DNA of 64,000 nucleotides from an uncultured beta proteobacterium (GCA_963746105.1 CAVVAD010000002.1:445047-509046); one strand, 5' to 3'. Shown: positions 18,194 to 62,389, counted from the first letter of the stretch. The notes: generated by a model from the letters alone, not told the origin. Translations and numbers: made by a program.

Positions 18194-19388
18194 ACGTGTC
18201 GTGGTGGGCATGTCCGGCGGGGTGGATTCCTCGGTCACCGCCTTGCTGCTCAAGCAGCAGGGCTACGACGTGGTCGGCCTGTTCATGAAGAACTGGGAAG
18301 ACGACGACAACGACGAATATTGTTCTACGCGCCAGGACTTGCTGGATGCAGTCTCGGTCGCCGACACCATCGGCATCCCGATCGAGGCAGTGAACTTCTC
18401 CAGGGAATACAAGGAACGCGTATTCAGCTCCTTCCTGCACGAATATCAGGCCGGGCGCACCCCCAACCCCGATATCCTGTGCAATGCAGAAATCAAGTTC
18501 AAGGCGTTTCTCGACCACGCGATGCAACTCGGGGCCGGCAAAATCGCCACCGGACATTATGCGCAAGTGCGCGAGGTGAATGGCCTGTTCCAATTGCTCA
18601 AGGCCGATGACGGCAGCAAGGACCAGAGCTACTTTTTGCATCGCCTGAATCAGATGCAGCTGAGCCATGCGCTGTTTCCGCTGGGAAAACTGCTGAAGTC
18701 GGAAGTGCGCGACATCGCAAAACGGCATGGCCTGCCCAATCACGCCAAGCGTGACAGCACCGGTATCTGCTTCATCGGCGAGCGCCCGTTCCGCGAATTC
18801 CTGAATCGCTATCTGCCGACCCAGCCGGGGGAAATGTGGGCCCCCGGCACCTTAGCCGGCAGGCCCGGTTGCGGGAGGAGCTCCAATGTGGTTGCTCCCA
18901 CAACTGAGTGCTCCGCACCACCGTCTCGCAACCCCACTCCGGAAGGCCATGTGGTCGGGCAGCACATCGGCCTGTCGTTCTATACGATAGGCCAGCGCCA
19001 GGGTCTGGGCATAGGCGGAGCCAGGCAGGCTTCCGGAGAGCCGTGGTTCGTCGCGGGCAAGGATATCGCCAACAATCGCCTGATCGTGGTGCAGGGGCAT
19101 GACCACCCCGCACTGCTTGCCAGGCGTTTGACTGCGCTGGACAGCCACTGGATCAGCGGTTCCGCACCGCTGCTCGATCATCCCTATGCCGCCAAGACGC
19201 GCTACCGGCAGGCCGATGCACCCTGCCGGCTCACCCGCGTCGAGGGCAATTCCTGCGAGATCGAGTTTGACCAGGCGCAGTGGGCCGTGACGCCGGGACA
19301 ATCGGTGGTCGTCTACGACGGCGCCGTCTGTCTGGGAGGAGCAATCATCGAACAAGGCAGCGTATTCATGGAACAAAGGCCGGGCTGA
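18186..19388 (+). CDS. mnmA: tRNA 2-thiouridylase MnmA carrying an in-frame insertion of about 32 aa
   Basis: [56 protein letters not shown]. Confidence 0.98.
18840..18935 (+). repeat. 96-bp repeat-derived in-frame insert in mnmA
   Basis: Interrupts PGEMW|TPEG; contains CCGGTTGCGGGAG, the exact reverse complement of MITE 62078-62090; internal hairpin GTTGCGGGAG...CTCCCACAAC. Confidence 0.75.
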
Positions 19389-19427
19389 TTCGCGTAAAAT
19401 GCGCGCTTCCCGATCCCAGGTATCGCC

Positions 19428-20801
19428 ATGACTACACTCAGCAAGCTCAGCGCCCTCTCCCCGCTCGACGGGCGTTACCACGCCAAGGTGGATGCCTTGC
19501 GCGCATACTTCAGCGAGTTCGGCCTGATCCGTTTCCGTGTGCTGATCGAGATCGAATGGCTCAAAGCGCTCAGCGCGCAGACCGGCATCCCCGAGATCGC
19601 GCCGTTCGCGGCGGCCACGATTGCGCAACTGGACTCGCTGCATGCCGACTTCAGCGAAGCGGACGCGCTTGCGATCAAGACCATCGAATCGGTCACCAAC
19701 CACGATGTCAAGGCAGTGGAATACTGGCTGCGCGAAAAGCTCGCAGGAAACGGCGAAACCGCCAAAATCCTCGAATTCATCCATTTTGCCTGCACCTCGG
19801 AAGACATCAACAACCTGAGCCATGCGCTGATGCTCAAAGGCGCGCGCGATCAAGTGATGCTGCCCGTATTGCACGTGCTGATCGGGCGTCTGAAGAGTCT
19901 GGCCCACCAGCATGCCGGGCTGCCGATGCTGAGCCGCACCCACGGGCAGACCGCCACCCCGAGCACGCTGGGCAAGGAACTAGCCAACGTGGCGTATCGC
20001 TTGCAGCGCGCCGAACAACGCCTGGCCGGTACCGAGATCCTCGGCAAGATCAACGGCGCAGTGGGCAACTACAACGCCCATCTGGCGGCGTATCCCGATG
20101 TCGACTGGGAAAGGCTGGCGCAGGATTTTGTCGGTGCTCGCGGCCTCGTCTTCAACCCCTACACCATCCAGATCGAGCCGCACGATTACATGGCGGAACT
20201 GTTCGATGCCTACGCGCGCATCAACACCATACTGATCGACCTGAATCGCGACATTTGGGGCTATATCTCGCTGGGCTATTTCAAGCAGAAACTGGTCCAG
20301 GGCGAAGTCGGCTCTTCCACGATGCCGCACAAGGTCAATCCGATCGACTTCGAGAATTCCGAAGGCAACCTCGGCCTAGCCAATGCGCTGCTGCGCCACC
20401 TTTCCGAAAAATTGCCGGTTTCGCGCTGGCAGCGCGACCTGACCGATTCGACGGTGTTGCGCAACATGGGCGTGGCGCTCGGTTACACGCTGCTCGCCTA
20501 CGAGTCCTGCCTGAAGGGCCTGAACAAACTTGAAGCCAATCCCCAGCGTTTGGCCGAAGACCTGGACGCAAGCTGGGAAGTGCTGGCCGAAGCCATCCAG
20601 ACCGTAATGCGCCGCTACAACGTCGCGAATGCCTACGACAAGCTCAAGGAATTGACGCGCGGCAAGGACGGGATCAGCCGCGACTCGCTGCGGACTTTCA
20701 TCAATGCGCTGGAGATCCCCGAACCTGAGAAGCAGCGCCTGCTGCAGCTGTCTCCGGATACCTATACCGGCAAAGCGGCAGATCTGGCAAAGCGGATTTG
20801 A
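19428..20801 (+). CDS. purB: Adenylosuccinate lyase
   Basis: [49 protein letters not shown]. Confidence 0.99.
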
Positions 20802-20819
20802 TCCCGGTCGTGACACAGA

Positions 20820-20845
20820 AAGAAGCCCGCGATCGCGGGCTTCTT
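20820..20845. terminator. Bidirectional terminator between purB and the FecR-domain gene
   Basis: AAGAAGCCCGCG-AT-CGCGGGCTTCTT perfect palindrome. Confidence 0.85.
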
Positions 20846-60428: not shown

Positions 60429-60767
60429 ATGAACTCTGCAAACGACTTGACCAGCAGGCAATGCAAGCCCAGTACGCCGGGCTCGCTTCCGCTATCAAAC
60501 TCCGAGGCGGACAAGCTGATGCGGCAACTCGAAGGCTGGAAACATTACGATCACCTTATCGGGAAGACTTACCATTTCAAGAATTACTACGAGACCATCG
60601 CATTCGTCAACGCCGTCGCATGGCTTTCACACGGCGAAGACCACCACCCGGAACTCACCGTCACCTATAACAGCTGCCAGGTCGAATATACCACCCACTC
60701 GATCCACGGCCTTTCTGAAAATGACTTCATCTGCGCTGCAAAAGTGGACGCGCTGTTCAAGATTTGA
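60429..60767 (+). CDS. phhB: Pterin-4-alpha-carbinolamine dehydratase
   Basis: FKNYYETIAFVN, EDHHPEL, THSIHGLSENDFICAAKVD. Confidence 0.93.
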   Translation: MNSANDLTSRQCKPSTPGSLPLSNSEADKLMRQLEGWKHYDHLIGKTYHFKNYYETIAFVNAVAWLSHGEDHHPELTVTYNSCQVEYTTHSIHGLSENDFICAAKVDALFKI

Positions 60768-61906
60768 GCGAGCTTTTGCACGGCCAGGTTATCGCCGCAT
60801 TCGGCCGCCAGTATCTGGTGCGGCTGGATGACGGCAGCGCAATAGCCTGCCTGACGCGCGGCAAAAAAAGTGAAGTGGCCTGCGGCGATCTGGTGGAAGT
60901 CAAACGCACCGCAGCAGCCACATCCGCAAATGACACAGGCGCACAGGGCGTAATCGAACATATCGCACCGCGCCACTCGCTGCTGCATCGCTCGGATGCG
61001 TTCCGCGAAAAACTCATCGCCGCCAACGTCACCCAGATCATCGTCGTAGTCGCCGCCGAACCTTCGTTCAGCGACGAACTGCTGGCACGTTGTCTGGTCG
61101 CGGCTTTCGATCAGAAACTCGAGGTGCTGATCGTGCTGAACAAATGCGACCTGCCCGATGCCGCAGCCGCCGCGCGCAAACGGCTGATCCCCTATTCCGC
61201 CATCGGCTATCGCGTGCTGGAACTCAGTGCCAAAAATCCTACCAGCCCCTCCGGGCTGGAAAATGCTGAACAACCTGCCCGTCGTAAACTGGAGGGACGA
61301 TTGCCGCCTGTCCCCGAAGGGGGGAGGATTGTGGAGGGGGTGGATGCCCTGCGCCCATTCCTGATTGGCCACACCAGCGTGCTGGTTGGGCAATCCGGCA
61401 TGGGCAAATCCACGCTGATCAATGCGCTGCTGCCCGATGCACAGGCCGCCACCCGTGAGATATCCGCGGTGCTGGATTCCGGCAAGCACACCACCACCCA
61501 CGCGAGGCTGTACCGGATTGATGATGGCGCGGCTGCGACACGTTACCGCGAAGCGGCCGATTGCACCCGCAAGGAGTACGCCGGCGGGTACCCGGCAGCT
61601 TCGCTGCCACCCTACCGCAACGTGAACAGCCGCCAGACACCCATCCCTCACCAGGAGGCTCCGCCACACCGTGTCGGGGTGTCCGGATTAATCGACTGCC
61701 CCGGTGTGCAAGCCTTCGGCCTGCATCACCTGAGCTTCGGCGGGATAGAACAGGGCTTTGTGGAATTCGCGCAGTATCTCGGCCAGTGCCGCTTTCACGA
61801 CTGCCGCCACGCGCATGAACCCGGCTGCGCGCTGCGCGCTGCGGTTGCACAAGGAAAGATCGCTGCGCGCAGGCTGGAGCTGTTCCGGCAGATCGCCGGC
61901 AAGTAG
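60764..61906 (+). CDS. rsgA: Ribosome small subunit-dependent GTPase RsgA carrying two in-frame insertions
   Basis: TTG start; AANVTQ, VLNKCDL, GQSGMGKSTLIN, GKHTTT, IDCPG, C-terminal CRFHDCRHAHEPGC zinc site. Confidence 0.96.
   Translation: MSELLHGQVIAAFGRQYLVRLDDGSAIACLTRGKKSEVACGDLVEVKRTAAATSANDTGAQGVIEHIAPRHSLLHRSDAFREKLIAANVTQIIVVVAAEPSFSDELLARCLVAAFDQKLEVLIVLNKCDLPDAAAAARKRLIPYSAIGYRVLELSAKNPTSPSGLENAEQPARRKLEGRLPPVPEGGRIVEGVDALRPFLIGHTSVLVGQSGMGKSTLINALLPDAQAATREISAVLDSGKHTTTHARLYRIDDGAAATRYREAADCTRKEYAGGYPAASLPPYRNVNSRQTPIPHQEAPPHRVGVSGLIDCPGVQAFGLHHLSFGGIEQGFVEFAQYLGQCRFHDCRHAHEPGCALRAAVAQGKIAARRLELFRQIAGK
61235..61330 (+). repeat. 96-bp inverted-repeat-bounded in-frame insert 1 in rsgA
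   Basis: Left AATCCTACCAGCCCCTCCGGG vs right CCCCGAAGGGGGGAGGATT; encodes NPTSPSG...PEGGRI. Confidence 0.7.
61526..61678 (+). repeat. In-frame insert 2 in rsgA (about 50 aa), homologous to the MITE internal module
   Basis: GCGGCTGCGACACGTTAC (61529-61546) is the exact reverse complement of GTAACGTGTCGCAGCCGC at 62101-62118 and 62296-62313. Confidence 0.8.
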
Positions 61907-61925
61907 CCGCTCAATATTTGTTTAG

Positions 61926-62389
61926 GGAACCTCTGATTAAGTCCCACATGGCCGCGCACTCGGTTTTGCGGGATGGGATGCAAGGCGCGCGAGGCAGCGA
62001 ATGGTTGATCCCCTTCGTGAGCAGCCCTGACACGGGGCGGCGCAGCCGTGCGGTGCGGGAAGGGCTGCCAGCGGCTGCTCCCGCAACCGGCTGCTACGGA
62101 GTAACGTGTCGCAGCCGCAGTGCAACGCAGCAGACCGCCCGCAAAACCAGTGCCCACAGGGGTTGCGACAAAATCGCGCGCTCGCGGCGTTGTGCTCCTC
62201 GGCATCGTAGTCCCGGCTGCCGCCATGACACGGTGCGCGTAGCGTCGGTGCGGGAGTGGCGGCAGGCGGCTGCTCCCGCAAGCGGCTGCTACGCAGTAAC
62301 GTGTCGCAGCCGCTACCTTCGTCGCACGCCTTGCGATCATCGCGATTTTGTCAGCAACGCGGCTCATGGAGGACTTAATCAGAGGTTCC
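61926..62389. mobile_element. 464-bp non-autonomous IS5-like MITE
   Basis: Perfect 19-bp TIRs GGAACCTCTGATTAAGTCC / GGACTTAATCAGAGGTTCC; 4-bp TTAG direct repeats at 61922-61925 and 62390-62393; no transposase. Confidence 0.9.

Follow-up and report, generated by a model that had tools for sequence, protein, structure and literature searches.

Four extra in-frame segments in conserved genes

The DNA described here is a stretch of 64,000 nt from an uncultured betaproteobacterium (CAVVAD010000002.1:445047-509046), called the window below, in which NCBIfam profiles identify MnmA, PurB, CoaBC and RsgA. The profile matches of MnmA, CoaBC and RsgA are each split into separate stretches (Table 1). Relative to empty-site orthologues, mnmA, encoding a tRNA 2-thiouridine synthase, carries 96 additional nt, coaBC 75, and rsgA, the gene of a small-subunit biogenesis GTPase, 99 and 153 at two positions (insert 1 and insert 2). 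As a preliminary description of this DNA had stated, all four segments are free of stop codons. Their lengths are multiples of three (+32, +25, +33 and +51 codons). The mnmA segment and rsgA insert 2 belong to a family of palindromic repeats, designated family-1, two further units of which lie in a MITE of the window, a miniature transposable element with inverted repeats. We consider it probable that these palindromic repeats form a selfish family kept in frame within genes. The closest homologues belong without exception to metagenome-assembled genomes (MAGs) of Gallionella, Sideroxydans or 'Nitrosomonadales', and the window is therefore assigned, by sequence similarity, to a member of the Gallionellaceae.

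Table 1. Host genes, inserted elements and repeats of the window (HMM, hidden Markov model; E, E-value; positions counted from the first letter of the window)
Feature	Position	Strand	Evidence
mnmA, host gene	18180-19388	+	NCBIfam NF001138, E 2.7e-137
Family-1 element in mnmA, decayed, 32 codons, starting at codon position 2	18837-18932	+	+96 nt versus empty L113
coaBC, host gene	33554-34891	-	TIGR00521, E 2.8e-128, match in two stretches
Extra 25 codons of the coaBC linker, boundaries approximate	34196-34270	-	+75 nt versus L113
rsgA, host gene	60764-61906	+	NF008931, E 2.3e-76, match in three stretches
rsgA insert 1, 35 codons in place of QD, inverted ends AATCCTACCAGCCCCTCC … GGAGGGGGTGGAT	61235-61339	+	Empty versus filled DNA
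rsgA insert 2, family-1, starting at codon position 1 (AAATRYREAADC…PPHRVGVS), split by nested element	61529-61683	+	HMM E 3.2e-12
Family-N palindromic element, 57 nt, 19 codons, nested in the rsgA family-1 element	61565-61621	+	57-nt insertion in HMM alignment
464-bp MITE	61926-62389	.	Perfect 19-nt terminal inverted repeats (GGAACCTCTGATTAAGTCC), TTAG at both sides
Family-1 unit 1 in MITE	62021-62118	-	Covariance model 93 bits, E 2.5e-15; HMM E 4.3e-22
Family-1 unit 2 in MITE	62219-62313	-	Covariance model 99.4 bits, E 1.6e-16; HMM E 9.1e-23
Family-L intergenic copies	11707-11767 and 53178-53226

In the comparison with solved homologues, the inserts of MnmA and RsgA fall between aligned blocks. 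MnmA aligns with the E. coli structure 2DER in two blocks separated by the insert, residues 220-252 facing a single residue, and RsgA with its E. coli counterpart in three, residues ~161-190 and ~256-307 having no equivalent. In the case of CoaBC, the inter-domain linker is ~20 residues longer than that of the M. smegmatis enzyme.

Alignment with orthologues yields filled and empty alleles for all three proteins, defining as indels what had been described as inserts: each of the four segments is missing from some close orthologues. Among the 120 best RsgA orthologues, of which those sampled are 76-91% identical to the window protein over shared residues, 65 lack both inserts, 36 carry insert 1 alone, 15 insert 2 alone and four carry the two together, so that insert 1 is found in 40 of the 120 and insert 2 in 19; one orthologue retains just a 14-residue remnant of insert 2. 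MnmA orthologues display either PGEM joined directly to RTPEG or the same residues separated by a 32-residue insert, and some contain double copies, partial deletions or additional nested pieces. CoaBC orthologues range from AAFFQP followed directly by K.LSGK to 22-26 extra, highly variable residues. Several RsgA and MnmA orthologues (P0004, P0011, P0023, P0142 and others) also differ by N-terminal extensions, such as VSVEGSANSTTRGERGSQRSI or SPLPNPLPQAGEGAN, which look like translated upstream repeats and are probably due to gene calls starting inside repeat DNA.

Family-1 is a pair of inverted hairpins with invariant loops and copy-specific stems

Family-1 was defined by an alignment of 63 full copies, and searched for with an HMM and a covariance model of the family. 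The element is 96-101 nt long, ~70% G+C, and consists of two inverted bulged hairpins. The first unit is made up of stem A, GACACGTTAC, a small hairpin, (G)CCGATTGCGGGAG and stem A', and the second of stem E, CTCCCGCACC, a small hairpin, CACCGTGTC and stem E'. The two halves have interiors that are reverse complements of each other, and each unit is closed by its own GC-rich stem of 8-9 bp, which surrounds a small variable hairpin and a near-invariant asymmetric loop (5' GACACG(T/G)T(A/G)C, 3' CCGNTTGCGGGAG). The element is a near dyad, scoring on both strands. Closing stems vary from copy to copy with their complementarity kept, while the loops GACACGTTAC…CCGATTGCGGGAG are nearly invariant. 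In the E-E' stem, double changes occur at seven of seven pairs and 96% of cells are paired, no shuffled or slid control coming near these values. An apparently constant 5' stem, GCGGCTGC, turned out to be artefactual, since the 18-mer used for the scan itself includes this stem: matches of the covariance model devoid of the 18-mer show different A stems, complementary in every case (GCGGTCGC/GCGACCGC, GCCCCGCC/GGCGGGGC and GCACAGCC/GGCTGTGC). In xthA and rdgB, variant copies consist of a single 48-nt unit and, after it, other hairpins; another variant is a tandem array (L070 7579-8000) with a period of 112 nt, each repeat of which comprises a single 48-nt unit and a near-identical filler of 64 nt.

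The two models detect exactly four family-1 copies in the window: the two MITE units, rsgA insert 2 and the mnmA insert. The preliminary description had proposed that both inserts are homologues of the MITE module on the strength of short exact matches, and this stands differently for the two genes. The start of rsgA insert 2 matches both MITE modules exactly over 18 nt on the reverse strand, inside a stretch of 36 nt that is 86-89% identical, and this match is real; the covariance model detects its two halves, and uninterrupted canonical orthologues of this element exist in L007, L023 and L095. The 13-nt match of mnmA, taken alone, is at chance level (E 0.37), yet the mnmA element is recovered by the HMM (E 3e-5 / 2.7e-4) and by the covariance model (40.3 / 35.1 bits, E 1e-5). 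Its orthologue in L166 is a canonical element whose stems are GGACCCCC/GGGGGTCC and TGCGGTTGC/GCAACCGCA; from this copy, together with the TTA and CCACCGT signatures, the mnmA element is oriented as its gene. Both genic elements thus have the orientation of their host gene and are reversed relative to the MITE units, and they start at different codon positions, the first in rsgA and the second in mnmA, two points on which the initial account was correct.

Orthologous rsgA elements, with the 18-mer excluded, are 85-95% identical, compared with 61-76% at third codon positions of conserved residues in the same genes, and are thus constrained, the loci used in this comparison having been ascertained through the 18-mer.

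Distribution and reading frame

To follow the family beyond the window, the 18-mer was scanned against one genome per prokaryotic species. More than 109 loci were found, nearly all of those listed being in Gallionella, Sideroxydans, Ferrigenium or Gallionellaceae assemblies, two of which are the completely sequenced Ca. Ferrigenium straubiae KS and an isolate, Ferrigenium sp. UT4. The module is thus a family spread through Gallionellaceae genomes, beyond what the preliminary description could show. The few matches outside Gallionellaceae, among those listed, lack the remainder of the element. With the covariance model, 232 matches were obtained in 771 kb, both strands counted, the best 150 of which represent 125 distinct places.

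Among the matches listed, ~40% of the copies (45-50 of 114) lie inside long open reading frames (ORFs) with a high G+C content at third codon positions. At least 17 host families have Pfam confirmation, the element being located inside or between conserved domains. They comprise peptide deformylase (Def), exonuclease III (XthA), RdgB/Ham1, PEP carboxylase, anthranilate synthase I (TrpE), RelA/SpoT, three Mur ligases, Mfd, an acyl-CoA synthetase, riboflavin synthase, a UbiH-like monooxygenase, a GluRS-like enzyme, YfiH and a DDE transposase; RsgA and MnmA are additional to this list. This abundance of in-frame copies within conserved domains of housekeeping proteins supports the repeat-to-peptide process, comparable to that of Rickettsia palindromic elements (RPE), which had been supposed from the window.

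In one orientation all three frames are used (AAATRY…, GCDTLL… and RLRHVT…), and in the other two (…NVSQP… and …VTCRSR…), the sixth frame holding a TAA. Relative to the host gene, 38 of the listed copies have the same orientation and 12 the opposite one. When at least 240 nt of coding-like sequence was required on each side of a copy, the ORF ran through 17 copies; three apparent exceptions proved to be copies already seen in frame, and no out-of-frame intragenic copy was found in this test. A first version, based on restoration of the ORF by deletion of the element, was too permissive: it gave 18 apparent cases, of which stricter conditions left three, all known to be in frame. Because unconstrained random insertion would put two thirds of the copies out of frame, we conclude that the frame is maintained, and we therefore argue that the inserts are translated.

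Five predicted viral contigs of IMG/VR carry a full family-1 element (among them L167 7123-7223, L169 1555-1653 and L171 7934-8033). In two viral contigs it lies just upstream of a conserved ORF of 166 residues and in one it adjoins an ORF of 593 residues resembling a Mu-type transposase. Phages may move family-1 between hosts.

A MITE carrying family-1 units

The two internal modules of the window MITE are 90% alike. Its terminal repeats also bound elements of 275-786 bp at 20 or more other loci, and in other genomes MITEs with the same termini hold from one to five family-1 units, which upholds the link between MITE and inserts noted at the outset. The MITE both accumulates and disseminates family-1. 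In L111, which is devoid of it, the spacer between rsgA and the DUF1415 gene is just 4 nt. At 62379-62392, the right terminal repeat supplies the final codons and the stop of the DUF1415 gene (62379-62930, minus strand). The TTAG flanks suggest an IS5-type partner.

Insertion and possible mechanism of spread

Comparison of filled and empty rsgA and mnmA alleles shows the elements to be cleanly bounded by the outer ends of their closing stems, as does that of MITE variants differing by one unit. No target-site duplication by family-1 was seen at rsgA, at mnmA or within the MITE variants, and the flanks display a weak G-rich preference only. The MITE variants show that the whole element inserts, stems included. 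The idea that the variable 3' stem is copied from the target flank was rejected, since the empty rsgA and mnmA sites hold neither arm.

We suppose that several small, non-autonomous palindromic repeat families have colonised the Gallionellaceae genome, family-1 being the main one. Its layout is that of a doublet of repetitive extragenic palindromic sequences (REP), or REPIN, with a clamp stem added to each unit. It would spread as DNA through a structure-specific enzyme encoded elsewhere in the genome; the obvious candidate, a transposase of the REP-associated tyrosine transposase (RAYT) or HUH single-strand type, none of which was found in the 1.3 Mb searched, is a doubtful one. Purifying selection would purge the copies that break the frame or the fold, and the surviving genic copies would be translated as extra loops of 30-50 residues at permissive sites, as with RPE. 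Two other families, N and L (see below), insert both into family-1 and into genes. In the window, this model accounts for the mnmA insert and for rsgA insert 2; only these two of the four segments are shown to derive from the repeat family.

Going further, family-1, rather than being decaying junk, could be a long-lived, vertically inherited intragenomic replicator of REPIN type residing in coding sequence, with a dedicated enzyme reading its invariant loops, a proposal that we make tentatively and to which we would give clearly less than even weight. With the loops recognised by the putative enzyme, the closing stems would need pairing only. If true, this would explain the copy-specific complementary stems, the slower evolution of orthologous copies compared with synonymous sites and the persistence across Gallionella, Sideroxydans and Ferrigenium, and family-1 would represent a steady supply of new surface loops for essential proteins.

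Several points weigh against the selfish, frame-maintained family that we favour. Precise loss, or recombination from one lineage to another, could in part underlie the uneven occurrence among orthologues, and translation is inferred solely from frame conservation. The AlphaFold model of RsgA computed with 26 orthologues (mean pLDDT, the predicted local distance difference test, 49) was too poor to place the inserts at the surface. No autonomous partner of the MITE was found, nor any transposase beside solo MITE ends, and the flanks of family-1 contain no target motif or duplication indicating a known mechanism. Likewise, tblastn with two seed sequences, IS200 TnpA and E. coli RAYT, gave no match in 1.3 Mb of loci plus the window. 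Outside MITEs, no parent-daughter pair was detected among non-orthologous copies at different sites; as, moreover, every copy has its own stems, recent transposition is not demonstrated. Finally, nhmmer over the loci found copies of rsgA insert 1 in rsgA contexts only, and the coaBC segment of the window had no paralogue in 920 kb of related loci.

rsgA insert 1, the coaBC linker and two further palindromic families

The last two results concern the segments for which the preliminary description went too far in taking all four to be built from palindromic repeat DNA. Insert 1 does have inverted ends and folds better than shuffled sequences (z -2.4), with copies in rsgA only, whereas the coaBC segment folds worse than shuffles (z +1.7). 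For these two segments, an ordinary lineage-specific expansion of a loop or linker, by slippage or local duplication, is a serious explanation, which we rate at a little under even. It agrees with the failure to find paralogues of either in 0.9-1.3 Mb of related DNA, with a metagenome scan using the end sequence of insert 1, in which five of the 51 matches were rsgA and the rest unrelated, and, for coaBC, with the lack of folding and with linkers that are highly variable in length and sequence. On the other hand, both segments are cleanly present or absent among orthologues ~85-90% identical over shared residues, the termini of insert 1 are inverted, other palindromic elements are inserted into both (P0030, P0036, P0282 and P0324), and the coaBC insert of the relative L165 has a hairpin core, CCCTCCCCC/GGGGGAGAGGG (C-run/G-run), with weak matches elsewhere (L001, E 2.7e-5). 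With the insert 1 peptide as query, phmmer matched none of 1.84 billion representatives; this search had no power, because even RsgA itself was missed. In our view an old, private palindromic insertion is the likeliest origin of insert 1. The coaBC segment, for which the L165 copy weakly suggests an origin from a hairpin repeat, may be either a decayed repeat of this kind or an ordinary variable linker.

Family N, which interrupts the rsgA family-1 element, has at least ten further copies at other loci (E 7.6e-6 to 7e-3), and is present in some and absent in other RsgA orthologues bearing insert 2. Family L is a palindromic element of ~60 nt (..ACTAGCCATTCGACTAGGCGAG..CTCGCCAAGTCGCTGG..) with 64 matches in 1.3 Mb. 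Besides its intergenic copies in the window, it occurs elsewhere as translated sequence in orthologues of RsgA and CoaBC, and it can be nested within the small family-1 hairpin.

A probable constraint at the level of DNA

Alternatively, family-1 might function as structured RNA (a ribozyme, for instance, or a regulatory motif or processing signal), conserved for the needs of the transcript and only secondarily located in ORFs. Such an RNA could also give rise to invariant loops and strong stem covariation, and to an element evolving more slowly than synonymous sites at orthologous positions; moreover, the B-B' and D-D' pairings could form a pseudoknot-like alternative fold. We nevertheless hold this to be improbable. 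Rfam 15 reports only a tRNA at gathering score in the window, and permissive thresholds add chance-level matches near the elements (E 3 and 6.4). The copies occur in both orientations, as well as in MITE clusters that look untranscribed. In the stems, G:T and A:C mismatches are equally frequent, which favours neither strand, and the near dyad scores on both. The absence of an Rfam match, the two orientations and the equality of mismatches together argue for a hairpin or dyad constraint on DNA rather than an RNA motif. An HDV (hepatitis delta virus)-like nested double pseudoknot was dropped for similar reasons: no Rfam match, a symmetric dyad and both orientations.

Loss of the inserts on the way to the mature protein, by excision from RNA or by protein splicing, which would leave the proteins unchanged, is very unlikely. 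The elements are indeed strongly structured, and insert-less forms occur in contigs of a single RNA run, the only metatranscriptome-like run sharing words with the gene, which comes from other strains. However, DNA runs contain identical insert-less junctions, together with substitutions belonging to other strains, and we therefore regard them as allelic variants rather than splicing products or mis-assemblies. Excision would not demand that all intragenic copies be in frame and stop-free. In addition, the insert peptides are conserved among orthologues, these segments of 32-51 residues have no intein-like features, and no intron family was matched.

Assembly or binning artefacts are a negligible explanation, even though the source is probably a MAG and repeats classically cause mis-joins and chimeras: contigs from independent metagenome runs, 99-100% identical, cross rsgA insert 1 (X1) and insert 2 (X2), which answers the concern of mis-assembly raised in the preliminary description, and the same inserts occur at the same codons in dozens of independent assemblies and in isolates (Ferrigenium sp. 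UT4; Ca. Ferrigenium straubiae KS).

Relationship with known palindromic repeats

These properties recall several known systems without coinciding with any of them. RPE-1 to RPE-10 (Ogata et al. 2000, 2002; summarised in PMC10969869 and PMC1779305) are described as interspersed repeats of 100-150 bp, abundant in intergenic as well as coding DNA, some insertions of which are ancestral to the genus. Family-1, with 96-101 nt, a double hairpin and hundreds of matches, shares with them the format of interspersed palindromic repeats, common both in intergenic DNA and, in frame, in unrelated housekeeping genes; in both cases several families coexist, some insertions are older than species divergence, and the element would be translated as an extra peptide. 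Yet its ~70% G+C, compared with AT-rich Rickettsia, and its Gallionellaceae hosts make sequence homology implausible, and although it behaves in the manner of RPE we have not filed it as a member. Its hosts are free-living chemolithotrophic betaproteobacteria, whereas Rickettsia is an obligate intracellular alphaproteobacterium whose genome is decaying. Family-1 is further set apart from RPE by its architecture, a pair of inverted bulged hairpins in which the loops are invariant and the stems differ from copy to copy, by the reading of one element in five frames, by nesting and by transport in a MITE.

REPINs are composed of two inverted REPs and a spacer, and are mobilised by single-copy RAYTs, with mostly vertical inheritance (PMC3337134, PMC3116915, bioRxiv 10.1101/2022.05.22.493013). 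The motif GACACG..hairpin..GCGGGAG and its inverse CTCCCGC..hairpin..CGTGTC, ~20 nt apart in family-1, have the same arrangement. Similarly, family-1 generates no target-site duplication and exists as many slightly different copies, and its orthologous positions across genera fit vertical inheritance and the long persistence described for REPIN-RAYT systems. In contrast, REPINs are extragenic by definition and observation, whereas many of the intragenic family-1 copies lie within conserved housekeeping domains. Each family-1 unit also has an extra closing stem that differs between copies, and no RAYT gene was found in the DNA examined.

ERIC (enterobacterial repetitive intergenic consensus)/RU, QMITE1 of Coxiella and Correia elements are likewise small and non-autonomous, and in some cases are fused in frame to ORFs of the host (PMC2759123, PMC5896051, PMC10969869). 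The 464-bp element of the window is a classical MITE, with terminal inverted repeats and TTAG as direct duplication of the target. Family-1 itself, unlike them, has neither terminal inverted repeats of MITE type nor target duplication, and it is far commoner inside essential genes than reported for those MITEs. Coding palindromes are also known in mitochondrial genes of Nematomorpha, where both arms of inverted repeats are translated (PMC6649704). Although these are likewise inverted repeats inside protein-coding genes, they are long, perfect and organellar, whereas family-1 is a dispersed family with a conserved core.

The system thus consists of RPE-like and REPIN-like selfish repeats in a free-living lineage, and is a member of neither class. 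Full-text literature searches found no account of such elements in Gallionellaceae. In-frame palindromes at such a frequency have so far been known mainly from Rickettsia, and protein-coding palindromes were presented as a peculiarity of that genus, tied to relaxed selection in obligate intracellular life. Their comparable or higher frequency in free-living iron oxidisers, from an unrelated element, implies that the process is more general than thought. Family-1 also offers a clean case of small-repeat copying without target duplication. The inserts account for unexpected differences in length and for interrupted HMM matches among Gallionellaceae proteins, and will affect gene calling, MAG assembly and phylogenomic alignments. 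These elements should be of interest to researchers in mobile DNA and protein evolution, and Ferrigenium and Sideroxydans, being cultivable, offer organisms in which the production and tolerance of such peptides can be studied.

Other repeats and neighbouring features

The window contains at 4024-4091 a perfect 34+34-nt palindrome beginning with GTAGGGTGGATAAGCGAAGCGCATCCACC, which resembles a classical REP doublet and is flanked by 54-nt direct repeats 76% alike (3905-3958 and 4096-4149). We conclude from it that the genome also has conventional repeats of REP/REPIN type. A direct repeat of 109 nt, with 79% identity, is found at 50098-50206 and 53251-53359, 3.1 kb apart. In L113, purB is called as two ORFs of 257 and 198 residues (11264-12642), owing to either an assembly frameshift or a disruption. 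Finally, L165, a Gallionellaceae assembly, carries a Cas9-Cas1-Cas2 locus (3002-7935) ~2 kb upstream of coaBC.

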